Shown one piece after another: positions 1,874 through 20,176 of a stretch of DNA of 38,982 bases. The notes beneath the pieces are model-generated. The model searched no databases and was not told where the DNA came from. It saw nothing but the letters and a program-made list of their open reading frames with translations. The first letter of the stretch is position 1. The number at the start of each line of letters is the position of its first letter. Both the position numbers and the translations under genes were made by a program. Source of the DNA: an uncultured Verrucomicrobiota bacterium (GTDB taxonomy: Bacteria > Verrucomicrobiota > Verrucomicrobiia > Limisphaerales > UBA8199); NCBI GenBank assembly GCA_964531815.1, contig CAZHEW010000002.1:1-38982 (forward strand), given 5' to 3'.

Positions 1874-3241
1874 TCAGTTGCCGGGAGTCTGGCCGGCCTT
1901 TCCGGCTGGAGCGGCTGTCTTTGGCGCGTGGCTGATCCGGCCTCGAATCGTTAGCATCAGCAGTCCGCCGATGGCGCCAAATGGCGCCATGAAATAGAAG
2001 TAGTTGCCGAGGCTGCGGTCGAGCAGGTTGCCCAGGAAGTAGCCGGCCAGGCTGCCACCGAAGTATTGGAAGGAGTCAATCAACCCCAGCGCGAACCCCG
2101 CAAAACGCCGCCCGCCAATGTCCATCGGCGCCGCCGAGCCCAGGATCGAGTGGGTGGAATTGGCGGTAAAGGAGATGAGGACCAGGAACAGGATGGCTGC
2201 ATTCACGCCGTGGAATTGGGCTGCCAGGAGAATGATCGCCGTTTCCAGGAAATAAAGAATTGCGGCGACGGGCGCGCGCCGCCCTTTGAACAGCGTGTCC
2301 GAGACGTAACCAGCCAGCAGCGAGCCGGCTGAGGCCACAAACGGGATGAGGAATGCGAGGAATTGAAACCGAACGGAGCGCAGGTCCACGTGGTAAAGGT
2401 CCTGCATATAGCGGGGGAACCACTGGTCCACGGCTTGCCGGACCGCGCCGGTGCAGGCGTAGGCGCAGGCGGTGATCCACACCACCGGGTTGCTCATGAT
2501 GGCGCGTATGACCTGGGAGAATTGGGCAGTCACCCCGGCGTCGGTTGGGCCGGTGTCGTCTCGAATGACTCCGTGGAAGCCGGCCTCCTCGGGTGTTTGC
2601 TTCACTGTTAACGCCATGCCGACGGCGGCGGCGGCGCAGATGATCGAGGGGGCCCAAAACAGCCAGCGCCAGTGAAGCGGCGGGACGTTAATCAGCCCGA
2701 GGACTGTGAAGCCCGCGAGCAGGGCTGGGCCCAGCGTGAAAATTCCCAGGCGCCCGAGATTGATCATGAACCCGAAGATGCCGGAGAATCGCCCGCGCTC
2801 GCGATGATTGAACCAGGCCGTGTTGATCTTCACCATTCCGGGCGCGCCGAAAGCCTGGAGGTAGCCGTCCACGCCCCGAATGGCGATGAACAGCCCCAGC
2901 ATCCCCGCGAACGACGCCGCGCCAAAGAGAATGTTCATCAGGATCGTCCCGGCCGCGCCGATCAGCATGGCGCGTTTACCGCCGAGGCGGTCGGTCAGCA
3001 GCCCGTTAATGATCTGGCCGCACGCGTAGGCAAAGAGCGAGGTGGTGATGATGTAGCCCATCTCCGCCCGGCTGAAATCAAACTCCCCGCTGATGGATTT
3101 GTTAGCGATGGAGAGGTTGTACCGGCACATGTAGAATGACGTGTACAACAGGCCGAGAAAGCCCCAGTTCAGGCCGCGGCGCGCGCGGAAGCCCGGCGGA
3201 TACTGAAGGTGCGGAAAGGCGGCGGCGTCAGGTTTGCTCAT
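1874..3241 (-). CDS. MFS transporter, organophosphate:phosphate antiporter (GlpT/UhpC)-like
   Basis: About 12 predicted TM helices. N-terminal FYMCRYNLSIANKSI and GLLTDRLGGKRAM motifs are typical of MFS loop 2-3 and OPA-type carriers. Substrate not inferable. Confidence 0.8.
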   Translation of the reverse strand: MSKPDAAAFPHLQYPPGFRARRGLNWGFLGLLYTSFYMCRYNLSIANKSISGEFDFSRAEMGYIITTSLFAYACGQIINGLLTDRLGGKRAMLIGAAGTILMNILFGAASFAGMLGLFIAIRGVDGYLQAFGAPGMVKINTAWFNHRERGRFSGIFGFMINLGRLGIFTLGPALLAGFTVLGLINVPPLHWRWLFWAPSIICAAAAVGMALTVKQTPEEAGFHGVIRDDTGPTDAGVTAQFSQVIRAIMSNPVVWITACAYACTGAVRQAVDQWFPRYMQDLYHVDLRSVRFQFLAFLIPFVASAGSLLAGYVSDTLFKGRRAPVAAILYFLETAIILLAAQFHGVNAAILFLVLISFTANSTHSILGSAAPMDIGGRRFAGFALGLIDSFQYFGGSLAGYFLGNLLDRSLGNYFYFMAPFGAIGGLLMLTIRGRISHAPKTAAPAGKAGQTPGN

Positions 3242-3289
3242 AAGGCATTTAGACCGCGCGCTTCATTCAGCAGGGCAATAGCACGGCAG

Positions 3290-4768
3290 CTACTCCGGAA
3301 CCAGTTCAATCGTCGGCTTCTCCTCCACCTCGGTGATATACTTCCGGGTGGCGGCGGGCAGTTGGTGCCAGATCTTGAGAGCCAGGAGACCTCCGAGCAA
3401 GGCGAAGGGCATAAGGAAACAGGGCCACCAATACCAGCTATGGCCTGTCAGGTAGCCAAGGCTGATGGACTGCAATCCCGTTCCCAGGTAGACAAAGCCG
3501 TCCACCACGCCCGAACAAGTGGCGGTGGCCTTCCGGCCGCCAAAATCAGCCGCCGCCGTGCCCGACATCAGCGAGTGCACACCGATCACCGCCATGGTGA
3601 TGAGCAGCGCGGCCAACCCGACCATGAACGGTGAAGAGAACAAAGAAAATGCCATCACAACCGTCATCAGGAACATGAACCCGCAGAGAATAACCGTTGG
3701 CGGACCGCGGCGGGAGTGAAAAATCTTGTCGGACACCAGCCCGCCGACAAACCCGCCCACGATGCCAAAGAAGCACAGCAGCAATCCCCAGTGGTTGAAG
3801 AAGAACTCCGCGCCGGTCTGCTTGACGTCTTTGGCGAAGATGAAGTACCAGGTCATAATCCCGTTGCGCAGCACGCCGGAGGTCAGCTCGATAAAGGCAA
3901 TCGTAAGCATGATCGGGCTGGCAAAGACCTTCTTGAGCAGCTCCAGCGTCGTGTACTCGATGTGCATAGCCCCCGAAGACGCGTCATGGGTGTCAAAATG
4001 CGGGAAGGCGGCCTCCTCGGGGGTATCCTTGATCAGCCACCAATCCAGCACCGCCCAGATCAGCAGGATGGCCGCTGGAATGAAAAAGACGGCCCAGTTG
4101 GCATCGAGCGGAGTGCCATCCAGCGCGAAGATCTTCTGGATGAGACGGTGCGCCCAGCTCAATTCGCCCTGGGCGTTCGCCTTGGCCATATCCACGATGG
4201 CTTTGCCCCAGTCGAACGCGAAATAGACCCCGAAGGAAATGAGCGTTCCGAAGATGGCCCCGAAGACGCCCCGTTCGCGCACATGGAACCAGTAAGCTTT
4301 AACCTTGATGATCGAGACCGCGCCGTAGCTCTGGAAATACATGTTGATCGCGTAGATCGCCGAGAAGGCCACTACCAGCCGCATCTTGAGCTGGCCGGTG
4401 ACGACCAGGTAGGTCAGCACGCCGAGCACGATATTGGCCAGGGACGCCCCCAGCGCCGCGATGATGATGCCGCGCTTGCCCCCGATCTTGTCCACCAGGG
4501 GCCCGTTCACGAGGAACGACACGCCATACACCGTCGTGCCGATGCCGAAGATCCAGCCAAAGTCCTGGTTGGTCATGAGCGAGCCGAGCGCGTTCTTGGA
4601 GACGGTCAGGTTGTAGCGCGCCATGTAGAGGAACGCGTAGGTCATGCCCAGCGGAAACCAGTTGATGAAGCGCCGGATCATGAACCACGAACCGTGCCCC
4701 AGCGGGTTGTTGTAGAAATAGAGGGCCACAACAACCGCCAGGCAAATCCCAACCAGCAGCAGAGACAT
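3290..4768 (-). CDS. MFS transporter, OPA-like paralog
   Basis: Same family signatures (LYMARYNLTVSKNAL, GPLVDKIGGKRGI). Tandem with the preceding MFS gene on the same strand. Has a longer central loop. Confidence 0.8.
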   Translation of the reverse strand: MSLLLVGICLAVVVALYFYNNPLGHGSWFMIRRFINWFPLGMTYAFLYMARYNLTVSKNALGSLMTNQDFGWIFGIGTTVYGVSFLVNGPLVDKIGGKRGIIIAALGASLANIVLGVLTYLVVTGQLKMRLVVAFSAIYAINMYFQSYGAVSIIKVKAYWFHVRERGVFGAIFGTLISFGVYFAFDWGKAIVDMAKANAQGELSWAHRLIQKIFALDGTPLDANWAVFFIPAAILLIWAVLDWWLIKDTPEEAAFPHFDTHDASSGAMHIEYTTLELLKKVFASPIMLTIAFIELTSGVLRNGIMTWYFIFAKDVKQTGAEFFFNHWGLLLCFFGIVGGFVGGLVSDKIFHSRRGPPTVILCGFMFLMTVVMAFSLFSSPFMVGLAALLITMAVIGVHSLMSGTAAADFGGRKATATCSGVVDGFVYLGTGLQSISLGYLTGHSWYWWPCFLMPFALLGGLLALKIWHQLPAATRKYITEVEEKPTIELVPE

Positions 4769-4929: not shown

Positions 4930-6279
4930 ATGACTGAAACCTTTCTACGCCTCAACTCGACCCTCAACGGCTATGTCTGGGGCTGGCCCATGATCGTGCT
5001 GCTGATGGGCACGGGACTCTTGCTTACGCTCTTGACCGGCGCGGTCCAGTTCCGCCGCCTGGGATTCGCCTTGCGCGAAGTGCTGGGCAGAATCACGCAG
5101 CGCGGCGGCGGGCAAGGGGATGTGCGCCCGTTCCAGGCGGTGGCCACCGCGCTTGCCTCCACGGTGGGCGTGGGCAACATTGCCGGCGTCGCCACGGCCA
5201 TCTACCTCGGCGGTCCCGGCGCGGTGTTTTGGCTGTGGGTGTCCGGGCTGCTCGGCATGGCAACCAAGTACGCGGAAATCGTCGTGGCGCTGCATTACCG
5301 GGAACCGGATGCGGCCGGCACGATGCGGGGCGGGGCGATGTACATCCTGAAGAAAGGGCTCGGCTGGCCGTGGCTGGGCGGCGCCTTCGCGTTGCTGACG
5401 GCGCTGGCGGCCTTTGGCATCGGGAACATGGTGCAGGCCAATTCGGTGGCCGACGCACTCAAAGCTACTTTTGATCTTCCCACATGGATGACCGGCGTCG
5501 TGCTGGTCGTCCTGACGGCGATGGTCATTCTGGGCGGAATCAAGTCCATTGCCAGCGTGACCCAATGGCTCGTGCCGTTTATGGCGGTGCTTTACCTGGG
5601 CGGGGCTGTGATCGTGCTGGCGCTCTGTGCCGGCAAACTGCCGCACGTCTTCAAGCTGATCTTCGACGGCGCGTTCTCCGGCACGGCGGCGGTCGGCGGT
5701 TTTGCCGGCAGCACGATGATGATGGCGCTGCGCTACGGCATCGCCCGGGGCCTGTTCTCCAACGAGGCCGGCTTGGGCAGCGCGCCGATGGTCCACTGCG
5801 CGGCCGACACGGACCATCCCGTCCGGCAGGGCATGTATGGCGTGTTCGAGGTGTTCGTGGACACGATCCTGATTTGCACTGCGACCGGGCTGGTGATTCT
5901 GTTGACGGACACCTGGAACAGCGGTCTGACCGGGGCCGCGCTGTCCGTCAAGGCATTCGAGACGGGTTTGCCCGGCACCTTCGGTGATGTTGTGGTGACC
6001 GGCGGACTGGTGTTGTTTGCTTACTCGACGCTGCTGGGCTGGAGTTACTACGGGGAAACTGGCATCGTCTATCTGCTGGGCGCAAAGGCCGCCATGCCCT
6101 ACCGGCTCGCCTGGCTGGTATTCGTTTACCTGGGCGCGACCGGTTCGCTGCACCTGGTCTGGGACATCGCTGACACGCTCAACGGGCTGATGGCAATTCC
6201 CAACTTGATCGCCTTGCTGGCCTCCCTTCCGCTGCTGCTGCGGCTGCAGCGGGAGTTCTTCAGCCGGTCTGCGGACTGA
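4930..6279 (+). CDS. alanine/glycine:cation symporter (AGCS family amino acid carrier)
   Basis: FQAVATALASTVGVGNIAGVATAI and SNEAGLGSAPMVH motifs are characteristic of sodium:alanine symporter family proteins. Multi-TM. Confidence 0.85.
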   Translation: MTETFLRLNSTLNGYVWGWPMIVLLMGTGLLLTLLTGAVQFRRLGFALREVLGRITQRGGGQGDVRPFQAVATALASTVGVGNIAGVATAIYLGGPGAVFWLWVSGLLGMATKYAEIVVALHYREPDAAGTMRGGAMYILKKGLGWPWLGGAFALLTALAAFGIGNMVQANSVADALKATFDLPTWMTGVVLVVLTAMVILGGIKSIASVTQWLVPFMAVLYLGGAVIVLALCAGKLPHVFKLIFDGAFSGTAAVGGFAGSTMMMALRYGIARGLFSNEAGLGSAPMVHCAADTDHPVRQGMYGVFEVFVDTILICTATGLVILLTDTWNSGLTGAALSVKAFETGLPGTFGDVVVTGGLVLFAYSTLLGWSYYGETGIVYLLGAKAAMPYRLAWLVFVYLGATGSLHLVWDIADTLNGLMAIPNLIALLASLPLLLRLQREFFSRSAD

Positions 6280-7545: not shown

Positions 7546-7763
7546 GTAACCAATATGAACTCAGGAGGGCCAAGGCTACAGACACGTCGGCCGGATCCAG
7601 CACCCTCCGTCTGGCCCAGCCGATCTCGCCGCAGGCTACTTGCCTGTAGCGCAGCGGCGACATCATACAGATGGCACTGCTGGATGGGGAATGCAAATCT
7701 TACGCCGGCCATGCGGCCGCGATTTTGCTTTTGCGCGCCCGGCTGATGCGGTTTGATTGCCAC

Positions 7764-9497
7764 ATGATGCTCCGACCTTGCTTCGTTTCGTTGGCGCTGC
7801 TGCTGGGGCAAACGCTTCAGGCGGCGATGCAGCCGCCCGGCGGGCCCCTCGTTCTCGAGCCCGACGGGAAGCCCGGCCCAGCGGTTGCCTTTTGGCTGGA
7901 GAGCTCGTTGAAGCGGGTGTTCCCCGCGTCGCCGCCCGGGACGACCAACCTGCATTTGCTGGCGGCGCGAAACAGCCGGATTGCCTTCCAGGCGTGCCTG
8001 CAAAACCGCCGAGTGCATCCGCTAAACGTCGAGTGTTCGGTGTCCGGTGGGGACGGCTTGAAGCCTCAGATTCGGCGCGTGGGATATGTGCCCTTGCGGC
8101 ATTACACGACCGACACGGACCCCGCCGAGCTGGACGGCTTCGGCCTGCTGCCGGGCCTGGTGCCGGACCCGCTCTTTCCCGACACCAAGGCCACGGTCGC
8201 GCCTTGGGAGAACCAGTCGTTTTGGATCACGCTGAGCATTCCCGCCGACGCCAAGCCGGGCGTGCGAGTGCTGCAGGTGCGTTACACGTTCCACAACGGC
8301 ACGCAGCTCGCGGAACTGCCGGTGCGGTTGGAGATTGCGCCGTTGGTAATCCAGCCCCGGCATGACTTCGACGTCATCCACTGGTGGCGCGGCGAGGCGA
8401 TCTGGGATTACTACAAGACCGGCATGTTCGACGAGAAATGGTGGCAGCTCACCCGGGCTTACCTGGCGGACATGCTCGCGCACGGATCGGACGTGGTCTA
8501 TGTGCCGATCTTCTTCAATCGCCGCGAGACCTTCCAGCGCCCGTGCCAGTTGCTCGGGATCACCAGCCCACAGCCGGACGTGTACCAGTTCGACTGGACG
8601 CAGGTGAAGCGGTTCACCGACATGGCCAAGGGGTTGGGATTCCGGAAGTTCGAATGGTCGCACCTGTGGATTTACTGGGGCGTCGAGAACCCCATCCGGG
8701 CCTACACGCAGCGCGACGGCAAATGGGTGATGCTTTGGCCGCCGGACACAAAGGCCACCTCCGACACCTACCTCACCTTCCTGAAGCAGTTCCTGCCGGC
8801 CTTTCACCGGTTCCTGACCGAGGAAAAACTGCTGGCCGCTTCGTATTTCCACCTGTCCGACGAGCCGGGCAGCGACCAGCACGTCGAGAACTACAAGCGC
8901 GCCCGCAAGGTGCTGCGCGAACTGGCGCCCTGGATGAAGGTAATGGACGCGCTCAGCGATGTGCGTTACGGGCGCGAGGGCCTGACGGACATCCCGATTC
9001 CGATTGTGAGTTCGGCGCAGGCCTACATTGACGAGAAGATCCCGCACTGGGTGTATTACTGCTGCGCGCCGCAGGGACCGTGGCTGAACCGGTTCCTGGA
9101 CACCCCCTTGCCAAAGGTTCGCATGTCCGGCTGGCTGTTTTACCGGCTCGGCGCCAAAGGCTTCCTCCATTGGGGTTACAACTACTGGCACAAGATCGAG
9201 CAGGAGGTGATGACCGATCCTTTCACCGATGCGTCCGCGGCGGCTTGGCCCATGATACCCTACGGCGATCCGTTTATGGTCTATCCGGGCGAAGCAGGGC
9301 CGATTGACTCAATCCGGTGGGAGGTGTTTGCCGAGTCCCTTCAGGACTACGCGCTGTTGCAGAGCGCCGGCATCCGGCCCGACGACCCCTTGCTCGCCCC
9401 GCTCAAGACCTATGCGGATTTTCCGAAGACCGAAGAATGGCTCCGGTCGGCGACGGAGGCCGTCTTGCAGCGACCCGCCGCCGGCAAGAATCCGTAA
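7764..9497 (+). CDS. DUF4091 / GH123-like glycoside hydrolase family protein (Sec signal)
   Basis: Likely start at ATG 7764 (MMLRPCFVSLALLLGQTLQA signal peptide) rather than the ORF-track 7671. Motifs FHLSDEPG (possible Asp-Glu catalytic pair) and GFLHWGYNYW, as I recall them from DUF4091 proteins. Family assignment is from memory, not from a search. Confidence 0.6.
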   Translation: MMLRPCFVSLALLLGQTLQAAMQPPGGPLVLEPDGKPGPAVAFWLESSLKRVFPASPPGTTNLHLLAARNSRIAFQACLQNRRVHPLNVECSVSGGDGLKPQIRRVGYVPLRHYTTDTDPAELDGFGLLPGLVPDPLFPDTKATVAPWENQSFWITLSIPADAKPGVRVLQVRYTFHNGTQLAELPVRLEIAPLVIQPRHDFDVIHWWRGEAIWDYYKTGMFDEKWWQLTRAYLADMLAHGSDVVYVPIFFNRRETFQRPCQLLGITSPQPDVYQFDWTQVKRFTDMAKGLGFRKFEWSHLWIYWGVENPIRAYTQRDGKWVMLWPPDTKATSDTYLTFLKQFLPAFHRFLTEEKLLAASYFHLSDEPGSDQHVENYKRARKVLRELAPWMKVMDALSDVRYGREGLTDIPIPIVSSAQAYIDEKIPHWVYYCCAPQGPWLNRFLDTPLPKVRMSGWLFYRLGAKGFLHWGYNYWHKIEQEVMTDPFTDASAAAWPMIPYGDPFMVYPGEAGPIDSIRWEVFAESLQDYALLQSAGIRPDDPLLAPLKTYADFPKTEEWLRSATEAVLQRPAAGKNP

Positions 9498-9537
9498 TAC
9501 TCTCTCCGATCGGCCGGTTGCCGTCACACTTGAACCT

Positions 9538-11298
9538 ATGAACCGCAGAACTGTCCTCAAACAACTGGCCGGCGCCGGTGCGCTGGGCCTGGTCGCCCCC
9601 TCCGCGGCCCTGGCTGCGCCTGGTGCCGCCGCACAGGACCTGCCGCCACCGCTGGCCAAAGACCAAATCCGCTTCTGGCTGGAGACATCTCTGCGGCGCG
9701 TTTACCCCACCTCCCCGCCGGGCAGCGCGCAACCGCTGAAACTGCTCACCGCCCGCGGGGCGCGGCTCTCGTTTCAGGCGTGTTTCCGCAACGACAAAAC
9801 CAATTCGGTGATCATGCGCTGTGAAGTGCTCGGCGCCGACGATTGCCGGCCGGTCGTGCGGCGCGTCGGTTTCGTTCCATTGCGCGCGTTCAACACCTAC
9901 GTGCCCAAAGATGAGCTTGAAGGCGTGGGCTTCATTCCGGGGCTTTGCCCGGACCCGCTGTTCCCGGAAAGCACAGCGCACATCGGCCCTCAGGCCAACG
10001 GCGTATTTTGGATCTCGCTCTTCATTCCAGCCGGCGCCACGCCGGGGACGCGGCAAATCAAGGTCCGCCTCACGCTGGAAAACGAGTTCTCCTACGTGGA
10101 CTGGACCCGCCCAAAGCCCTGGTCGGTGGAGTTGACCGCGATGGTCGAGGTGCGGCCGCTGGTGCTGGAGCCCCGCCGCGACTTCCCGGTGACGAAGTGG
10201 ATCTCGGCCGATTCAATCTGGGAATACTACCAGATCGAGCCGTGCGGGGAACGTTTCTGGCAATTGGCGGACGCCTACATCGGCAACATGGTCGCGCACG
10301 GCTGCGACACGATCTACACGCCCATCTTCAACGCGCGGCACGAAATCCTCGTCCGCCCGGCGCAGTTGCTCCGCGTGCGGCGCTCGGCGCCCGACCGCTA
10401 CGAATTCGACTTCGCCGACGTGCAGCGCTGGGTGCGCATTGCGCTCAAGCACGGGGCGCGGCATCTCGAATTCACCCACTTCTTCACGCCGGCGCCAACC
10501 AGCGGCAAACACCCGCAGCGCATCTTCGAGCGCGGAGAGAAGATCGGCCCGATGCTCTGGCCGCCGGAGAGCAGCGCCACGTCCGACACGTACCGGAAGT
10601 TCCTCGAACAGTTCATCCCGCGCTTCAAGGCGTTCCTGGAGGCGGAGAAGATTCTCGACCGGTCATTCTTTCACTGCGCCGACGAGCCGGACGGCGACGC
10701 GCAGATGGCGGACTACCGCAAAGCCCGCGCGCTGCTCCGGGAACTGGCGCCGTGGATGAAGGTCATGGACGCGATGAGCGACACGCGCTTCGCCACCGAA
10801 CGGTTGTCCGACATGCCGATCCCGAGCATTGTCACGGCGCCGGAGTTCACCAGGGCAGGCTGCCCGGCATGGGCTTACTTCTGCTGCGGGCCGCGCGACT
10901 CCTACGTGCAGCGGTTGCTCGACACGCCGCTGCCCAAGATTCGCATGAGCGGCTGGCTCTTCTACCGGCTGGGCGCAAAGGGATTTCTGCACTGGGGCTA
11001 CAACTACTGGTTCGTCTTCTGCACCGCCCGGATATCCGATCCCTTTCTCGACGCCGCGGTGGGCGCCTGGCCGGGGCTGCCGGCGGGAGATCCCTTCGTG
11101 GTTTATCCGGGAGAGCACGGGCCGATTGACTCCATCCGCTGGGAGGTGTTCGCGGAGTCGCTGCAGGATTACGCGCTGTTGCAGAGCGCCGGCATCAAGC
11201 CGGATGCCCCGCTGCTCTCGCCGATCAGGAGCTACGCGGAATTTCCCAAGAGCCAGGAGTGGCTGCGGCAGGCGCTGGAGCAGGTGCTGCGCAGGTAG
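9538..11298 (+). CDS. DUF4091 / GH123-like glycoside hydrolase family protein (Tat signal), paralog of the upstream gene
   Basis: Start at ATG 9538 gives MNRRTVLKQLAGAGALGLVAPSAALA (twin-arginine motif). The ORF-track start at 9304 overlaps the upstream gene. Collinear similarity to the 7764 gene throughout (FHCADEPD, GFLHWGYNYW, GPIDSIRWEVFAESLQDYALLQSAGI). Confidence 0.6.
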   Translation: MNRRTVLKQLAGAGALGLVAPSAALAAPGAAAQDLPPPLAKDQIRFWLETSLRRVYPTSPPGSAQPLKLLTARGARLSFQACFRNDKTNSVIMRCEVLGADDCRPVVRRVGFVPLRAFNTYVPKDELEGVGFIPGLCPDPLFPESTAHIGPQANGVFWISLFIPAGATPGTRQIKVRLTLENEFSYVDWTRPKPWSVELTAMVEVRPLVLEPRRDFPVTKWISADSIWEYYQIEPCGERFWQLADAYIGNMVAHGCDTIYTPIFNARHEILVRPAQLLRVRRSAPDRYEFDFADVQRWVRIALKHGARHLEFTHFFTPAPTSGKHPQRIFERGEKIGPMLWPPESSATSDTYRKFLEQFIPRFKAFLEAEKILDRSFFHCADEPDGDAQMADYRKARALLRELAPWMKVMDAMSDTRFATERLSDMPIPSIVTAPEFTRAGCPAWAYFCCGPRDSYVQRLLDTPLPKIRMSGWLFYRLGAKGFLHWGYNYWFVFCTARISDPFLDAAVGAWPGLPAGDPFVVYPGEHGPIDSIRWEVFAESLQDYALLQSAGIKPDAPLLSPIRSYAEFPKSQEWLRQALEQVLRR

Positions 11299-11332: not shown

Positions 11333-13741
11333 TCAGAATGAACCCAGCTCGATGGGGTTCCGCGCGCGGTAGCGCTTGCCGTTGACAACCACGCGCTTCA
11401 GCCCCGTCAGCGGCGGGACATGCAGCACCACTTTTGACGGTCTGACCCGCCACTGACCACTAAAGAGCACCTCGACTTGCCGGCCATCGGCGGATTTCCT
11501 GAACCGGATCGTCGCGGGGCCGCACTTGGTGGGCAGGTTCTCCAGCGCCGTTTCCCGTTCGGCGCTGAGCCACGCCAGCGGGCAGAGCCGCAGCAAGTGA
11601 ATCTCGCCGGGCGCGATCTCGTCGTCGAGCACTGCCAGCCGCGCCATCAGCACCACCGGCGTCCAGAAGATGTTCGCGTGCTGGCCGCCCCGGGACTCGC
11701 ACACCGTGTAGGTCTGCTGCGACATCATGCCGGTGAACTGCGAATACATTCCCTCCAGGAAGCGCTCCCGCTCGCCCAGTTGCCAGGAATGAAACAGGTT
11801 CCAACTATAGCAGCCTTCCCAGCTCGACATCTCGTGCCGGAGCGATGGCACGTGGCTCGACAGCTCCCCGTAGGGGCGATAGAGGGCCGTTGGCGGGCCC
11901 TCCCGAAACCAGGCGACGGCGTCCTTCATCAACGGGTCGCCGGCGTCCATCAAGCCGGCGAAGACCAGGTGCATCGGGCCGGTGTCCAGGTAGGTGATCC
12001 ATCGGTACTGCCAGCCGTTCTCTTTCGCCATTGAATATGGAACCAGCGCGCGTTGCTGGCCGCGAGGATCCCGCCACCTGGGCATGGTGGCCGCCTTGGC
12101 CCGGAAGGCCGCCAGAAACGCCGCTTTGTAGTCCGCGGCTTCCGCCTCGAACTCCGCCGCGCGCGGGTGTCCGGTCTGCTTCAGGAGTTCAACCGCGGTC
12201 CTCAATCCCTTGTATATCCAGCCATCGGTCCAGCATACCTGAGCGCGGGATTCCTCGTCGGAGGCGCCCGCGGGAGGCATCAGGCCGCCCACCCCGCCGT
12301 GGCCCGTGATCCGCCGCGCGTCCCGAATCCACTCGCAGGCTTTGGTAATGACCGGCGTGTATTCTCTGATGAACTCGGGATCGCCGGTTAGCAGCCCGTG
12401 TTGAGCTATGGTCCAGAGAATGGCGCCGTGGTCCGGCAGCCAATTGACAATTGCCACCTTCTGCGGCACGCCGAGGTAGCCGGGATGCGGCCGAAACGCG
12501 GCCCCTGGCGGATTCACCTTTCCCTGGGCATCCTTGAACACCTTGAGGTACTTCTCCACCAGGTCGTGGTAACCCATCGGGTCCAGGAAACCAGCCAGCG
12601 CTATGGAAATCGGCGTCGCCCAGGTCGCGATGCCATAGCCCATCGCGCCGGTCATCACGTAGGTGTCGCCGGTGGCAGGGTCAAGATCGGCGGTGATCTG
12701 GTCGAACTGCAAATTGCGCTTGATGGCCTGGTTAATGTAATCCTCGGGCAGGTCAACCCGCGCCGCTGTGGCCGGCAGCTTCGACCAGAATGCCTCCGCT
12801 TCCTTCAGCGCGCCCTCGTACCCCAGCGCCAGCTCCGTGTCAAACCGCGTCCGTTCCGTCGGCAGCATGGGAATCAGCAGGTCCACCGCCGCGCCCTGCG
12901 TCGGGGCAAGCTGCACATGGAGCACCGAATCATCCGGCGAGGGAAACCCGGTCCGGAACACCGCCTTGCACTCCGCCCCCGGCGCCACGGCCAGGCGCAC
13001 CCTGCCGTCAGGCTCGAGGATGCGGAAGGCTTCGGCGGGGCGATAGCCCGCCGCCTCCGGCTTGAGCTCGCGCTCGTACCTGGGTGATCCGCCGTAGGGC
13101 TTGAGGTTGTGCCGCAGCTCCATCGAGGTGTTGATCGCCAGCCGGTTGATCCTGATCCCGAACCCCACCACCCCCTCCACCGGCATGGCGGGCGAGACCT
13201 GGTGAACGGAAAGCCGGACCCACGCAAAGAGCGGTTCATCGCCCCGCCGCAGTTCCTGTCCGCCGGGCACATGCGCGAAAATCCGCTGGCGCAGCAGGTA
13301 GCCGCCCCACTGCCATTCACTCCGCAGCACCGGCGCGTTGCGGTCTTCCCAGCCCTGCACCACGTCGCCGTAGTCCTCGCGATTCGCGTTGGCAAACGCG
13401 GGAATCCCCTCCGGGCTGGCCGCCGGGATGAACGCAAACTGGGCCCAGGGCTCAGGAATCGGCGGCCGGATGGCGACCGGGTTCTGCGGCCCTTTGTCGA
13501 ACGGGAAGGCGTTTATCAGCGTGCCGTCATGGAGCACGTTGAAGCGGGTGATGTGCGCCTTCCACCCCAGCATCGTCCATTTCTTGGGGAGCTCGGACCA
13601 CCACGTGCGGGCCAGGGAAATGGATGCTTCGGCGTCGGGCGCCGCCGCCAGGTCTTGCGGCGCGATCAGGCAGGCGGCGATTCCCGCGGTGAACCATAAT
13701 CGGATGGAGCTTCGTCTTGATGAGTAGTTCATATTGCGCAT
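11333..13741 (-). CDS. large secreted protein, possibly six-hairpin (alpha/alpha)6 glycosidase-like
   Basis: Start chosen at ATG 13741 (MRNMNYSSRRSSIRLWFTAGIAACLIAPQDLAAAP signal). About 800 aa of non-repetitive, well-behaved composition. The C-terminal half is helix-rich, W/Y-rich and (alpha/alpha)-barrel-like. The fold call is an impression only. Confidence 0.5.
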   Translation of the reverse strand: MRNMNYSSRRSSIRLWFTAGIAACLIAPQDLAAAPDAEASISLARTWWSELPKKWTMLGWKAHITRFNVLHDGTLINAFPFDKGPQNPVAIRPPIPEPWAQFAFIPAASPEGIPAFANANREDYGDVVQGWEDRNAPVLRSEWQWGGYLLRQRIFAHVPGGQELRRGDEPLFAWVRLSVHQVSPAMPVEGVVGFGIRINRLAINTSMELRHNLKPYGGSPRYERELKPEAAGYRPAEAFRILEPDGRVRLAVAPGAECKAVFRTGFPSPDDSVLHVQLAPTQGAAVDLLIPMLPTERTRFDTELALGYEGALKEAEAFWSKLPATAARVDLPEDYINQAIKRNLQFDQITADLDPATGDTYVMTGAMGYGIATWATPISIALAGFLDPMGYHDLVEKYLKVFKDAQGKVNPPGAAFRPHPGYLGVPQKVAIVNWLPDHGAILWTIAQHGLLTGDPEFIREYTPVITKACEWIRDARRITGHGGVGGLMPPAGASDEESRAQVCWTDGWIYKGLRTAVELLKQTGHPRAAEFEAEAADYKAAFLAAFRAKAATMPRWRDPRGQQRALVPYSMAKENGWQYRWITYLDTGPMHLVFAGLMDAGDPLMKDAVAWFREGPPTALYRPYGELSSHVPSLRHEMSSWEGCYSWNLFHSWQLGERERFLEGMYSQFTGMMSQQTYTVCESRGGQHANIFWTPVVLMARLAVLDDEIAPGEIHLLRLCPLAWLSAERETALENLPTKCGPATIRFRKSADGRQVEVLFSGQWRVRPSKVVLHVPPLTGLKRVVVNGKRYRARNPIELGSF

Positions 13742-13871
13742 GGGTGTTGTCAGCCGGCAGGTGAGCTTACCGTGCCGGCCGGCCCTGACGCCAGTCCAGT
13801 CTTGGAACTGGCCGGGCAAGTAACTGCGATTACAGCAGTAGCAGACGGCTGCCACCGTAGCAACACCGTGC

Positions 13872-15772: not shown

Positions 15773-16004
15773 TAGCGCATCGGTCGGCTTTAGGTAAAGT
15801 GAAAATAAGCCGTGCCGTTCAGACAAGTGTGCATCACACTCCACAATCCGTTGGTTAAGACCGGCCCCTTTCAGCCCCCCGTTAACACGCCCTCCAAAGT
15901 CCCCTTTCGCTTCCGAAAAATACTCATTGCTGCCTTGTCCCCGATCTGTTCTACTTCATCTGCTCTTTGACAGCTCCGGTCCTTCCGGGACCGGCCAGAA
16001 CATT

Positions 16005-16150
16005 TTTTCAGCGCCAGGGAACCCCGTGAGAATCGGGGACGGTTGCGCCACTGTATCAGGCTACAAGCTCCTTCAAGCCACTGCGTCAAAGCGCGGGAAG
16101 GCTGGAGCAAGGTTGGAAGCCCCAAGTCAGGATACCGGCTGGAAAGTGCT
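16005..16150 (+). promoter_or_regulatory. cobalamin (AdoCbl/B12) riboswitch aptamer
   Basis: Conserved elements in canonical order: AGGGAA (16016-16021); hairpin cccc-GUGAGAAUC-gggg (16022-16038); GCCACUGU (16047-16054); GCCACUG (16077-16083); GGGAAGGC (16095-16102); B12 box AGUCAGGAUACCGGC (16125-16139). Confidence 0.85.
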
Positions 16151-16246
16151 CATCATAGTCTGCCTTGAGTAAGGCAGGCTCGCTTCTCCGCAAAGAGAAG
16201 GATGAGGCCAGCTCGCCAAACTGTTTTTGGCGGGGGTCGTCGAATG

Positions 16247-16283
16247 CCTTCATTCTCCGTTTTGCGTGAGTGAAGGTTTTTTT
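16247..16283 (+). terminator. intrinsic terminator, probable riboswitch expression platform
   Basis: Stem CCTTCA(tt)CTC / GAGTGAAGG with a 10-nt loop, followed by TTTTTTT (16277-16283). Lies about 100 nt after the aptamer and about 80 nt before the first ORF. Confidence 0.65.
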
Positions 16284-16364
16284 GTTGCCTTTGCTCCGCG
16301 CTGGTCTCTCTGAAATCAACCCCTGTTCCGCCTTCAGCGGCGGAACTTAGAAAGAAGGATCAGT

Positions 16365-17024
16365 ATGCAGAGGATCGTTTGTTTAATGGCAATTAGTTGT
16401 TGTGCGGTGCCGGCTTTGGCCGCGCCGTATTATTTCCAGAGCGCATCGGGTCAGAATGCCTGGATCGAGGTGGATGGCTGGGCCGGTGCCGGCGCCAATG
16501 AAACCATTCTGGTCGTGGACTGGAACTTTATGGGCGGCCCGTACCAAACCGAATCGCATGCCTTTGGTTTCCGCTGGGACGGCACAGCGTATGAATCCGA
16601 CATGCTCGACGCGTTCAATGATGCCGCCATATTTGATGTCACCGCTGGCTACGGCGGTGCATTTCTTTACAACATCGCGTACAACGACGGCACAGATGCG
16701 CACCTGCATATCGAAGAAGGCGGTTGGAATCCGGGCAGCACAGCCAATCCTTACGCGGAATGGGGCGCAATGAGCCCCGACTGGACAAAACTGGGCGAAT
16801 GGGATGCCAATCAGGCCGCCTATGACGCGGAGTTGCTCCAGCATGGCTATCTTGAAGGTATCAATGCAGTGTTTTGGTATGGTGAATATCCGCTTGGACA
16901 AACGTTTGATGATTATCCGCTCGATGTTCCATTTGCGATCATACCCGAACCCTCGGCGCTTGCGCTGTGCACCCTGGGCGGCGGGTTGTTCCTGCTCCGG
17001 CGGAAGCAAACGGCGGCGGCCTGA
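16365..17024 (+). CDS. PEP-CTERM sorting domain-containing secreted protein, Trp-rich uncharacterised domain
   Basis: Signal peptide MQRIVCLMAISCCAVPALA. C-terminal IPEPSALALCTLGGGLFLLRRKQ, i.e. PEP motif + TM + basic tail. AAGGA lies 5 nt upstream of the ATG. The body shares a module with the next gene. Confidence 0.8.
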   Translation: MQRIVCLMAISCCAVPALAAPYYFQSASGQNAWIEVDGWAGAGANETILVVDWNFMGGPYQTESHAFGFRWDGTAYESDMLDAFNDAAIFDVTAGYGGAFLYNIAYNDGTDAHLHIEEGGWNPGSTANPYAEWGAMSPDWTKLGEWDANQAAYDAELLQHGYLEGINAVFWYGEYPLGQTFDDYPLDVPFAIIPEPSALALCTLGGGLFLLRRKQTAAA

Positions 17025-17093
17025 GACGTTTTGGAAAGGACATTTCCAAGCCTGTCGAGTTACTCTCTACAGGCTCAACTGATTGGAGGCAGC

Positions 17094-19337
17094 ATGAAGA
17101 ACCGCGGATTGTTACCGATCCTCTCCTGTTTGGCTTTTCTCACAGCCAGCGCCGCCGAAGCAGCCACGCTTTCGTTTGAGGACATCCGACTTTGGGCCGG
17201 CAGCGGCACGAACCGGGCCGCGATGGCCGTTCACTGGACCGAGCCCGAGATCCGCAACAATGCCAGTGTGCCCAATCCGGTCGCGGACAAGTCCATCGCC
17301 TGGGGCTTTCGCTGGAATGGAACCGCCAGCGGCGAAGACATGTTCAACGCCATCCTGGCCGCGGACCCGCGGTTGTTCGTGGCGGCCAGCGGCGCCACAG
17401 CTTATGGCAAAGCGGTGTTCGGGATCGGTTACGATCTCAACAACAACCGCGTCCTCGGGCTCCGGGACGGCACGAGCATTCTGGCCGCGTTGTCCCTCAC
17501 CAACGCGCCCTCGGCCTTTACCAACGGCCTGGCAACGATGAGTTACGGCGACACGGACGCCTTTCAATCGCTCGATCCCACGGACCTCTATTGGGGCGGG
17601 TGGTACGGCCCGAGCTGGGAACTGTGGCACGAGTCGGGAGGCAACGGCGGCTTCACCAACGCGCCCGAACGCGGATCAAGCCCGTATTGGACGCCCGATG
17701 ACCCGGACATGCCCTGGACCGGCAACCACGGGCAATGGCACCTCTCGGATGTCGGCATGTCGGGCATCGTGTTGAAAGATGGTTCCTGGATGGGCTGGTC
17801 GGTCGCTGCCGGCGGGCTGGACTTCAATAATCCTGGAGACCCGGGCACGGTGGCCTGGGGATTGCATAAGCACGCGCCTGCCCCGCCTGAGTCCGCGCCG
17901 GAGCTCATCAGCCCTTACGCGGTCGCCTTGACCGATTCTGCGGGGCCATTTGGGCCGGGCTTGTATGGCGATCCCGCCTGCGTGGTGGGCCAACCCTCCA
18001 CCTTGTTGCTCAACGACCATTTCATCGTCGGCAGCAACCGGCATCACATCAAGATCGTCGAGACGGCCTACAACACGGACGTTGACGGCAACAAGGTCAT
18101 CGTCACGCTCAACCGTACCGGCACCAGCGGCGCCTACACCTACGGCTATGTCACGGTGGCATTCGATCATCCCGTCACAAACGATCCCGCTAATCCTTAC
18201 GGGATTGACTTCGAGGTGTTTGGCAACGCGTTTTATGTGGGCGGCGGCACTGCGGGCGGCTACGTGAGCGATAGCACGGACATGCGGACCTGCTATCTCG
18301 CCGGGGGCATCTTCCCCGAGCCGATGCTCGTATCGGTCAGCCCCGACGGCGCGCAGTGGTACACTTACACGAACGGCCCGTACTGCGACGCGGCGTTTCC
18401 CACCCAGGGCTTCGAGTGGGATCCGGGACTGCACGACTCCACCGGCAGCGGCTGGACGATGAAGCAGGCGGACTTTACCAAGCCGGTGAACCCGGCGCTC
18501 GCCGGCCTGTTGGGCGCGATGGGCGCCAACTTGCCGACGTACGACGCCCTGAAGCTCTATGCCGGCTCGGGCGGTGGCACGGGTTTCGACCTTGCTGAAT
18601 CCGGATTCGACTCCATTCAGTACATCCGTGTCTCGGCGGCAGCGGGATACTACGGCGGAGAGGTGGACGCCTTTTCGGACGTGCGCCCGGCTGTGCTCGG
18701 CGAGAGCCTTTGCGTCGCGCCCGCCAACACGACCAACGGAACCGGCACGCTTCGCTTCCGGGAACCGGGCAACCCGGCTGCGAACGTCGTAGCGCTGACC
18801 TTCAACGAGGTGGCGGACATTGCGCTGGCCACAGTTTCAAGGTTCCAGAACGAACCCGCCCTCGCGGCCCTTTCCGGAACAAAGATCGAAGCCGTCAACC
18901 TGCACGTTGCCACCGCCATCGAAACCAACGAGGTTGCCTTCGACGCGGACGTCGCGATCAACGTCGCCCCGCATTACGCCGCGGGCGGCGCCGATCTGGA
19001 CGTGCTGGGTTGGGACGGCACCAACTGGACGCGGACGCCCTTCGAGTTCAGCGCGAGCACAGGCACGGCGGTCCTGAACGGGATCGGCGCTTCCGCCGCC
19101 TTCGCGGTAATCCAAGTCACACCGCCGCGACTGGCCATGAGCCCGGCTGCCGGAGGTTTTGACTTCGAATTCACCCCGGTGACAGGCTGGGCCCACACGC
19201 TCGAAAGCACGACCAACTGGGTGAACTGGGCCAACGTCACCAACGTGACACCTGCGGACGCGCAAACCGTGGTGCTGTCAGACCCGGCGCCGCCACAACC
19301 TCAGTCGTTCTACCGCCTGCGCCTGAACCGGCCGTGA
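17094..19337 (+). CDS. large secreted protein of unknown function (747 aa)
   Basis: GGAGG lies 4 nt upstream of ATG 17094. Signal peptide [23 protein letters not shown]. The N-terminal module is homologous to the preceding PEP-CTERM protein. Central region has FEVFGN...VSVSPDG...GGGTGFDL...YIRV...GEVDAF. C-terminus ends in FYRLRLNRP. Confidence 0.75.
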
Positions 19338-19372
19338 GCTGTAACGCCATCAGGATTTGGACATCGCCAGGT

Positions 19373-20176
19373 ATGAACCGGCCCGCCCATGCAGCCGACC
19401 CTGGAAGGGTTGCCCGGGGATTCTCTGGCGATGTTCCGCCGGGGCGGCGGCGGGGATTCACCCTGATCGAGTTGCTCGTGGTCATCGCCATTATCGCCCT
19501 TCTGGCGGCGCTGTTGTTGCCGGCGTTGAGCCGCTCCAAAACCACGGCGCAACGCATCCAATGCGTGAGCAACCTTCACCAAATGGGCATTGCCGCGCAC
19601 CTCTATGTGGATGACAACGGCGGTTTCTACCCTGTCGCTTATTGGTACGGCACGGTCAACGGCGTGATGGCCGCCATCTCCTGGGATTTGACCACGGTGC
19701 AAGGAAATCCGCCCGCGGTCACTCCCGGTCTGCTCTGGCAAAGCCAGGGCAACAAGCAGATTCAACAATGCCCGTCGTTCACCGGCGGCGCCAACTGGCT
19801 CGTGGACCCCTACACCGGCTACAACTACAACACCAGCTACCTCGGCCACGGCCAATATGAGAACATCCAACAATCTGCCAGGGCTGCCGAGGTGCGGCGC
19901 CCGAACCAGACGCTCCTGTTCGGCGACGGCCAATACTCCGCCGGCGCGAACAAGTTCATGCGCGCCCCGTGGCCAAATCCCGCCGACGATTCGTTCCGCG
20001 GCCGGTGGGCGGGCACCCAGGGCTTCCGCCACTTAAAGAAAAGCAACGCCGCATTCTGCGATGGCCACGCCGAGTCAATGCGCGCGCGCTTCACCGACAA
20101 CGAAGACGGCGCGGCCAACGTCGCCGCCGGCACCGGGTTCCTTTCCGCCGACAACTCCCTTTACGACCTCGAATGA
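19373..20176 (+). CDS. prepilin-type N-terminal cleavage/methylation domain protein, H-X9-DG (DUF1559-like) family
   Basis: [25 protein letters not shown] pilin-like N-terminus. C-terminal [13 protein letters not shown] matches H-X9-DG. Start is either ATG 19373 or GTG 19334, which overlaps the upstream stop (GTGA). Confidence 0.85.

Follow-up and report, generated by a model that had tools for sequence, protein, structure and literature searches.

Most bacteria need corrinoids yet do not make them, and to our knowledge corrinoid capture outside the Proteobacteria and the gut Bacteroidota is largely uncharted. A contig from an uncultured Verrucomicrobiota bacterium (assembly GCA_964531815.1, contig CAZHEW010000002.1; the 38,982 nucleotides analysed are called the window) raises this question in concrete form: what is controlled by a cobalamin (B12) riboswitch that is followed by three genes, here named gA, gB and gC, for exported or envelope proteins? 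We consider it probable that the locus is an envelope operon for corrinoid capture and hand-off that is repressed by cobalamin, i.e. induced by B12 starvation. This proposal, first made in a sequence-only reading of the same DNA, is supported by the enrichment of cobalamin riboswitches at homologous loci, by the transcobalamin-like fold and profile of the first gene product, and by BtuFCD-type genes in orthologous operons. The features concerned are listed below with their window coordinates and strand.

15954-16156 (+): cobalamin riboswitch aptamer, RF00174 (cmscan 74.8 bits, gathering threshold 31.5, E = 8e-17)
16246-16276 (+): terminator-like hairpin from RNA folding, with arms GCCTTCATTCTC and GAGTGAAGG
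16277-16283 (+): run of seven T residues directly 3' of the hairpin
16365-17024 (+): gA, 219 amino acids (aa), exported
Residues 1-19 of gA (+): signal-peptide-like N-terminus
16422-16934 (+): residues ~20-190 of gA, putative transcobalamin-beta-like (SLBB/DUF4430-related) domain
16941-17009 (+): residues 193-215 of gA, PEP-CTERM anchor (TIGR02595)
17094-19337 (+): gB, 747 aa, secreted, with a signal peptide
17154-17828 (+): residues ~21-245 of gB, gA-like domain (BN)
17889-18698 (+): residues ~266-535 of gB, jelly-roll-like domain (Bmid)
18699-19334 (+): residues 536-747 of gB, C-terminal domain (BC)
19373-20176 (+): gC, 267 aa, prepilin-type DUF1559 protein; alternative GTG start at 19334
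19445-19519 (+): cleavage/methylation motif and hydrophobic helix of gC, followed by a globular domain to 20173

The RF00174 match covers the full model (positions 1-189 of 189), and RF00174 was the sole Rfam family detected in the window. The sequence-only reading had described a riboswitch followed by three genes in the same direction with short or overlapping junctions. This description was borne out, with the exception of the riboswitch start, which had been placed at 16005, inside the aptamer, rather than at 15954. The gap between gA and gB is 69 nucleotides (nt), and gB and gC either overlap by 4 nt or are separated by 35 nt, depending on the gC start. Database proteins 96-98% identical to the three products support their lengths of 219, 747 and 267 aa; a 96%-identical 747-aa protein supports the gB start and a 97%-identical 267-aa protein the gC start, while the alternative GTG codon of gC overlaps the gB stop. 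The three export signals also proved to be as described: a signal peptide plus PEP-CTERM in gA, a signal peptide in gB and a prepilin leader in gC.

Between the aptamer and the gA start codon lie the hairpin and its T run, which the sequence-only reading had not noted (folding energy of 16240-16295, -15.9 kcal/mol). A scanner for consensus promoters and terminators reported no site in 15800-16400; this simple program probably overlooked the hairpin because its loop is 9 nt. As the hairpin and T run resemble an intrinsic terminator, the sequence suggests a transcriptional OFF switch.

Linkage of this riboswitch to the genes was examined across genomes. A gA-family alignment scanned against one genome per species yielded 37 loci, one of which (L001) belongs to the window's own species, in the Verrucomicrobiota, Planctomycetota (Phycisphaerae and Planctomycetia), Armatimonadota, Desulfobacterota and Spirochaetota. 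Rfam scans of the other 36 at gathering thresholds were uninformative for three (L005, L024 and L025), in which the contig starts inside the operon. In 32 of the 33 informative loci the gA homolog is preceded by a cobalamin-clan riboswitch in the same orientation, and any intervening open reading frames (ORFs) run in that orientation too. The exception, L013, has only a cyclic di-GMP (c-di-GMP) element of the c-di-GMP-I-GGC type (5393-5506), upstream of a 311-aa gA homolog. Eight gB-family loci, including that of Pedosphaera parvula, were obtained by exact-protein look-up; all eight have RF00174 upstream and a pilin-like gene directly after gB, and in five, which have no gA, at most about 250 nt separate the riboswitch from gB. 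A reciprocal test used four gC relatives on new contigs, picked from a search with gC only. Each of these loci has the riboswitch, then BN and/or Bmid (with BC in three), then gC. Over the 548 kb of DNA fetched, all 50 cobalamin-clan hits were on the gene strand. The enrichment behind cobalamin riboswitches that would be predicted for a B12-responsive system was therefore found for gA, gB and gC homologs alike in at least five phyla, and by these sequence comparisons the linkage of this widespread module to B12 sensing is as strong as that of the classical btu genes.

The composition of the module varies with phylum. In all loci of the Planctomycetes-Verrucomicrobia-Chlamydiae (PVC) group and Armatimonadota, the riboswitch is followed by none to three additional CTERM proteins and then by gA, Bmid and gC; in Armatimonadota the order of the last three is gC-Bmid-gA. 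Loci of the Desulfobacterota comprise multiple gA-like, BN-like and Bmid paralogs that bear VPLPA-CTERM tags. In nine of them (L010, L011, L014, L020, L021, L026, L027, L034 and L035) cobalamin riboswitches are followed, ~100 nt further on, by c-di-GMP-I-type riboswitches (c-di-GMP-I, -GGC or -UAU), and these pairs precede arrays of gA-like and Bmid paralogs, with up to three pairs per 12 kb; the pairs in L020 are at 293-421/542-670, 6853-7150/7266-7421 and 9383-9578/9688-9810. No c-di-GMP element was found in the PVC and Armatimonadota versions. The Spirochaetota locus L032 (3970-6510) has an adenosylcobalamin (AdoCbl) riboswitch of the AdoCbl-II class (RF01689, 37.2 bits), and its gA domain lies at the C-terminal end of a protein of 399 aa that carries no CTERM tag.

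Pfam and NCBIfam scans of gA returned nothing besides PEP-CTERM, for which TIGR02595 scored 21.4 bits (cutoff 16; tail IPEPSALALCTLGGGLFLLRRK) and PF07589 a sub-threshold 15.7 bits (cutoff 20.7). No exosortase is encoded in the window. Homologs of gA formed 104 clusters at 42-98% identity, and an exhaustive profile search extended the family to 847 representative clusters (50% identity). Many relatives of 500-1000 aa repeat a ~80-residue core of gA two to five times. Surface-sorting tags were present in 92 of the 132 relatives that were scanned, 65 being PEP-CTERM and 27 belonging to the type IX secretion system (T9SS). The only recurrent globular Pfam family among the 132 was DUF4430 (PF14478), above threshold in eight with a best E-value of 6e-17. 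DUF4430 and gA-profile matches overlap in constant register in four proteins (P0240, P0249, P0261 and P0301), such that DUF4430 positions 3-68 correspond to gA-profile positions ~70-150, and a joint alignment of the two was colinear across the whole domain, linking gA to DUF4430 by transitive homology. Where canonical DUF4430 units have YWMYxVN, the gA family has an insertion of ~25 residues (PYAxWG...LGEWDxN); a further feature is a beta extension at the N-terminus, in which the motifs WxGxGxNE-ILVVDWN and SHAFG(F/Y)RW are conserved. One gA relative additionally bears an alpha/alpha-toroid (SQHop_cyclase_C), the other half of the transcobalamin architecture.

The AlphaFold2 model of gA (mean predicted local distance difference test, pLDDT, 79) was beta-rich, with a helix at residues 77-86 followed by a beta-hairpin of strands 91-95 and 100-107. 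Transcobalamin or intrinsic factor accounted for 11 of the 14 best Foldseek matches of this model in the PDB, aligned on the beta-domain. Chain 7qbg_C gave E = 0.06 and a probability of 0.98, the isolated apo beta-domain of human transcobalamin (5no0) gave a template modelling (TM) score of 0.61 on the target, and the same domain with cyanocobalamin bound (5np4) was also among the matches. The model thus has both the hairpin insert after the helix and, at weak E-values, the likeness to the transcobalamin/intrinsic-factor beta-domain by which we assign it to the beta-grasp fold. We regard the Foldseek result as meaningful because few such chains are present among 350,000 and because the link to B12 was established independently. 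The structural comparison with known B12 binders suggested in the sequence-only reading therefore placed this beta-domain at the top of the gA list, and the profiles pointed to DUF4430. From these data we infer that gA and the N-terminal part of gB contain distant relatives of the transcobalamin beta-domain (SLBB type) that would bind corrinoids. The statement that none of the three proteins resembles a known B12 protein thus holds for family models, but not for these remote similarities. As a separate observation, five T9SS-sorted proteins of 775-921 aa (P0228, P0240, P0244, P0249 and P0254) carry four to five tandem gA-like/DUF4430 units and may be high-capacity corrinoid-binding surface proteins of T9SS-bearing bacteria.

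The second gene product is a three-part fusion for which no Pfam, NCBIfam or PDB sequence match was obtained, although its homologs form at least 183 clusters (90% identity). Its first ~120 residues are 29% identical to gA (E = 2e-8), a homology likewise absent from the sequence-only reading. Outside gB-type, verrucomicrobial loci, Bmid is encoded by a separate gene of 290-585 aa that adjoins gA in most cases, and in the other phyla this protein is invariably co-encoded. The stand-alone form often ends in a PEP-CTERM tag, a VPLPA-CTERM tag or a dockerin-like tail; in Pfam and NCBIfam scans it and the other co-operonic CTERM proteins showed only sorting tags, dockerin and TSP3. BC was full-length only in gB-type loci; apart from these, L008 (Phycisphaerae) gave one match, weak and partial. 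Although the AlphaFold2 model of Bmid was of high confidence (pLDDT 91.5), Foldseek returned only weak, low-TM matches to jelly-roll, CBM32 and F5/8C (discoidin) domains. Neither gA nor Bmid was predicted to be a beta-propeller. We do not claim that Bmid is related to BtuJ, a B12-binding lipoprotein of Bacteroides, as the similarity is that of a generic low-TM jelly-roll; the BtuJ family DUF4465 (PF14717) had no match in gA, gB or 48 gB-family members, and no other Pfam family matched Bmid in those 48. Two further observations concern propellers. The first gene after the riboswitch in L043 (1777-4418) encodes a 710-aa PQQ_2 beta-propeller, and a few gB relatives (P0175 and P0209) are fused to PQQ_2 propellers, which recalls the propeller B12 binders BtuG and BtuK.

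The third gene product is a prepilin-type, pseudopilin-like protein. Its N-terminus matched N_methyl PF07963 (35.2 bits, threshold 21.2) and TIGR02532 (34 bits, threshold 16.3), reads RRRG| at the prepilin site, and has the G|FTLIE-type motif followed by a hydrophobic helix. DUF1559 (PF07596) was just above threshold (24.9 against 23.3 bits), with only the N-terminal 39 model positions matching. The prediction of an H-X9-DG pseudopilin agrees with the prepilin leader and, as to the motif, only in part: TIGR04294 (H-X9-DG) scored 17.3 bits, below its cutoff of 19, the window protein reads H-X9-D-N, and the DG is not conserved in the gC ortholog group. Paralogs of DUF1559, a very large family to which no function has been assigned, number 68 in Planctopirus limnophila (PMC10632474), and a search with gC gave thousands of matches. 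Within this PVC-wide family, however, gC belongs to one narrowly conserved ortholog group. Its members are 63-87% identical among verrucomicrobial-type relatives and 40-53% identical to those of Planctomycetota and Armatimonadota, and share 35 invariant positions over 21 sequences from three to four phyla, including two Cys residues, as well as a conserved C-terminus (TGFLSxDNSxYDL). Other DUF1559 paralogs in the same loci match gC only in the N-terminal helix. The gC gene adjoins Bmid or gB in 23 of the 37 gA loci and in all eight gB loci; in the loci examined, its ortholog group always occurs in cobalamin-riboswitch operons, beside Bmid or gB. Compared with the pseudopilins of type II secretion and type IV pilus systems, gC shares the prepilin motif and hydrophobic helix, which precede its DUF1559 globular domain, but no secretin, ATPase or platform genes are adjacent to it.

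No TonB-dependent receptor, ABC transporter or cob gene was found in the 39-kb window; the absence of a receptor or ABC component that had been noted at the locus thus extends to the whole window, and BtuFCD-type importer genes are likewise absent from it. Such genes were found in orthologous operons. In L042, gB and gC are followed in the same direction by three genes, for a binding protein resembling BtuF, an ABC ATPase and a permease resembling BtuC; among the top NCBIfam matches were models for BtuF and BtuC, below their equivalog cutoffs. Three other kinds of gene follow gC, and their products are candidates for the inner-membrane leg of the pathway:

L039 7544-8411: genes after gC; Peripla_BP_2, DUF6580 (small polytopic membrane protein) and Cys_rich_CWC/DUF5522 all occur after gC in this locus
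L049 6882-7415: DUF6580 after gC
L038 7614-8006: Cys_rich_CWC/DUF5522 protein after gC
L047 6863-8070: Peripla_BP_2 and Cys_rich_CWC/DUF5522 after gC

No PDB relative of DUF6580 was found, nor anything on it in the literature; its polytopic sequence suggests a transporter role.

These results can be assembled into a working scheme. At low intracellular B12, the riboswitch would permit read-through past the terminator-like hairpin. The gA protein would be exported and tethered to the cell surface via its PEP-CTERM/exosortase tag, where its divergent transcobalamin-beta-like (SLBB/DUF4430-type) domain would bind corrinoids. The gB protein, secreted and without an anchor, combines a second gA-like domain with Bmid and is probably a second binder or a relay or docking component. 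Once processed by a prepilin peptidase, gC would be lodged in the inner membrane or form part of a short pseudopilus; from there it would pick up the periplasmic ligand and deliver it to an importer of the inner membrane. In orthologous operons this importer would be of the BtuFCD type or DUF6580; for the present genome it would be encoded elsewhere.

A more specific version of this scheme is that PVC and Armatimonadota bacteria import corrinoids without a BtuB-type TonB-dependent transporter, from surface binders through a dedicated DUF1559 pseudopilin to BtuFCD or DUF6580. The pseudopilin would act either as a subunit of a retractile pseudopilus or as a membrane-tethered periplasmic receptor. 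We put this forward tentatively and consider it doubtful as it stands. If true, it would provide the first ligand and function for any DUF1559 member, and the dozens of paralogs that a planctomycete genome contains would then look like uptake receptors, each specific for its own substrate. The dedicated pseudopilin is in any case the most unusual part of the module and could prove mechanistically new, and a DUF1559 member with a cargo indicated by a riboswitch offers an experimental handle on a paralog family that is among the largest in Planctomycetes.

Several results weigh against the capture and hand-off proposal. The terminator was assigned from the RNA sequence alone. The Foldseek E-values of gA with transcobalamin and intrinsic factor were 0.06-0.4, none being 0.001 or lower, and other beta-grasp proteins appear in the same list, such that this similarity taken alone is statistically weak. 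The DUF4430 model PF14478 did not match gA or gB at E of 1 or lower. PDB searches with gA and gB as single sequences and with profiles A1, A2 and A5 gave no link to transcobalamin, BtuJ, BtuH, BtuG or BtuK; in particular, the gA-family profiles A1 and A5 matched no transcobalamin sequences. As these direct tests failed, we describe gA as a new, divergent branch related to DUF4430 rather than as a member that the model recognises. Bmid had no informative structural neighbour, BtuJ being absent from its top 50 Foldseek matches. No outer-membrane transporter was found in the window or in any locus examined. The Desulfobacterota loci lack gC and have c-di-GMP riboswitches alongside the module, and riboswitches of this class typically accompany genes for biofilm and matrix. 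PEP-CTERM proteins, for their part, are classically tied to exopolysaccharide and biofilm.

The last points lead to the main rival, a B12-starvation-induced adhesion or aggregation programme in which the proteins, as matrix or adhesin components, would fasten a cell that needs B12 to surfaces or to neighbours that produce it, and would bind no corrinoids. Sorting tags of the PEP-CTERM, VPLPA-CTERM and T9SS types dominate the gA family, dockerin-like tails occur on Bmid proteins and on large co-operonic proteins, the weak neighbours of Bmid are carbohydrate-binding jelly-rolls, and the pairing of cobalamin with c-di-GMP-I riboswitches in Desulfobacterota is as this explanation would have it. 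It counts on the same side that riboswitches of the c-di-GMP-I class also precede PEP-CTERM genes in Methylophaga, which forms biofilms (PMC12530212). However, adhesion leaves unexplained why the best structural and profile neighbours of the gA domain are cobalamin-binding domains and why genes for a BtuFCD-type importer continue some of the orthologous operons. It is also at odds with the PVC and Armatimonadota versions, which are without a c-di-GMP element, and the strict coupling to B12 sensing across phyla is simpler if the ligand is the cargo. On the strength of the riboswitch enrichment, the fold and profile result and the BtuF/BtuC/BtuD-type genes in orthologous operons, we favour capture and hand-off and consider the adhesion programme unlikely.

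An extracellular corrinoid function other than uptake would retain corrinoid binding, as implied by the transcobalamin-like domain predicted from sequence and model, and put it to a different use, for instance to keep corrinoids from competitors, to buffer cobamide analogues that the cell cannot use, or for redox chemistry based on corrinoids. Tandem domain arrays in surface proteins of 500-1000 aa would suit high-capacity sequestration, and the loci encode a pilin-like component with no outer-membrane transporter. Repression by B12, as predicted for an OFF switch, would nevertheless suit acquisition rather than a process dependent on plentiful B12. Membrane components of the BtuF/BtuC/BtuD type and DUF6580 are associated with the operons, and gA is without the features of a redox protein; we judge a non-uptake function to be distinctly unlikely. 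That control by the riboswitch extends no further than gA, or than the first gene, with gB-gC as an independent and unrelated downstream unit, is highly improbable: gA (GC content at third codon positions, GC3, 0.62) does look laterally acquired and is separated from gB by the 69-nt gap, but the riboswitch stands directly before gB-gC without gA in L038, L039, L040, L042 and L045, gB itself has a gA-like domain, the riboswitch is always present in gC-selected loci, and the consensus scan of 15800-16400, a range that does not include the gA-gB gap, showed no terminator-like site. We accordingly rejected the idea that gB and gC are unrelated passengers.

Among known systems, the functionally closest to the proposed capture and hand-off operon is the accessory Btu relay of Bacteroides thetaiotaomicron, composed of BtuG, BtuH, BtuJ/DUF4465 and BtuK (PMC13616437, PMC8941943, PMC6143338), in which surface lipoproteins encoded behind B12 riboswitches pass cobamides to BtuB (PMC13616437). 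The window operon appears analogous to it but made of different parts. Both have several exported, surface-tethered and mutually non-homologous proteins behind a cobalamin riboswitch, both show domain fusions and paralog expansion (BtuGH there, BN plus Bmid in gB here), both include a beta-jelly-roll component (BtuJ and, as predicted, Bmid), and extracellular corrinoid capture with hand-off to an importer is what we propose for the window operon. In contrast, no homology of the Btu proteins to gA, gB or gC was detectable by Pfam, PDB sequence or Foldseek comparison (no DUF4465, BtuH or propeller). The Bacteroides proteins are anchored by lipidation rather than by PEP-CTERM/exosortase, the window operon lacks the TonB-dependent transporter BtuB, and the relay has no counterpart of the pseudopilin, which is an obligatory partner in the PVC/Armatimonadota module. 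The hosts differ as well, being gut Bacteroidota in one case and environmental PVC, Armatimonadota and Desulfobacterota in the other.

DUF4430 is the C-terminal domain of transcobalamins (PMC4350170). The best fold matches of gA and the bridging proteins place it near this transcobalamin-like SLBB clade (Burroughs et al. 2007, PMC1796856; PMC4350170), whose described bacterial members are mostly wall-anchored proteins of Gram-positive bacteria; gA is not recognised by the DUF4430 model. The module would add a new transcobalamin-like branch in Gram-negative surface proteins, together with a new jelly-roll partner and a dedicated DUF1559 pseudopilin. In Desulfobacca acetoxidans, a tandem cluster of AdoCbl, c-di-GMP-I and cyclic AMP-GMP (c-AMP-GMP) riboswitches has been described (Sherlock et al. 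2022, PMC9481103); that paper named no regulated proteins and speculated on conductive pili and corrinoid-based redox (PMC9481103). The nine Desulfobacterota gA/Bmid loci have the same architecture, with pairs repeated several times within 7-12 kb, and so identify protein families under AdoCbl/c-di-GMP tandem riboswitch logic gates, extending the Desulfobacca case. The window differs in having a single cobalamin riboswitch and no c-di-GMP element. Neither the module nor a function for DUF1559 turned up in literature searches that combined cobalamin with pseudopilin or its riboswitch with PEP-CTERM, or that addressed DUF1559.

The origin of the locus was considered from its composition. As judged by eye in the sequence-only reading, the intergenic region and the first gene are less GC-rich than their surroundings: the computed GC content is 0.548 for the intergenic region with the riboswitch and 0.564 for gA, compared to 0.62-0.67 for the neighbours. 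The GC3 of gA also departs from the 0.75-0.86 of nearly all other genes in the window, and gA is closest to proteins of Phycisphaerae and Pirellulales (69-73%) rather than to those of other Verrucomicrobiota (58%). The riboswitch, on the other hand, is 66-85% identical to those heading orthologous operons in Verrucomicrobiota and 42-53% identical to those in Phycisphaerae. The suggestion of an acquired locus can thus be kept for gA but not for the whole; recent acquisition of the entire locus was rejected, as only gA is aberrant in GC3 and the riboswitch is of the Verrucomicrobial type. Because many Verrucomicrobiota have the riboswitch directly before gB, it appears from these comparisons that lateral transfer placed a gA cassette, by insertion or exchange, downstream of a riboswitch already resident there. 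A Tepidisphaera locus (L048) has a phage-type integrase just upstream of the riboswitch and a tRNA just downstream of gC (3099-4289, 7800-7872, 9126-9195), which hints that the module is able to sit on a mobile island; a fluoride riboswitch and a CLC gene lie nearby.

The genes flanking the operon in the window are unrelated housekeeping genes, among them those for glutamate dehydrogenase (on the other strand), a radical-SAM QueE-like protein, an aminotransferase, KsgA, ClpP/ClpX, GH123 and a major facilitator superfamily (MFS) protein. An 840-aa ORF on the minus strand (11333-13855) had no Pfam match. Two GH123-family ORFs (7671-9497 and 9304-11298) share about 190 nt, perhaps as the result of a tandem duplication or of a start called too far upstream.

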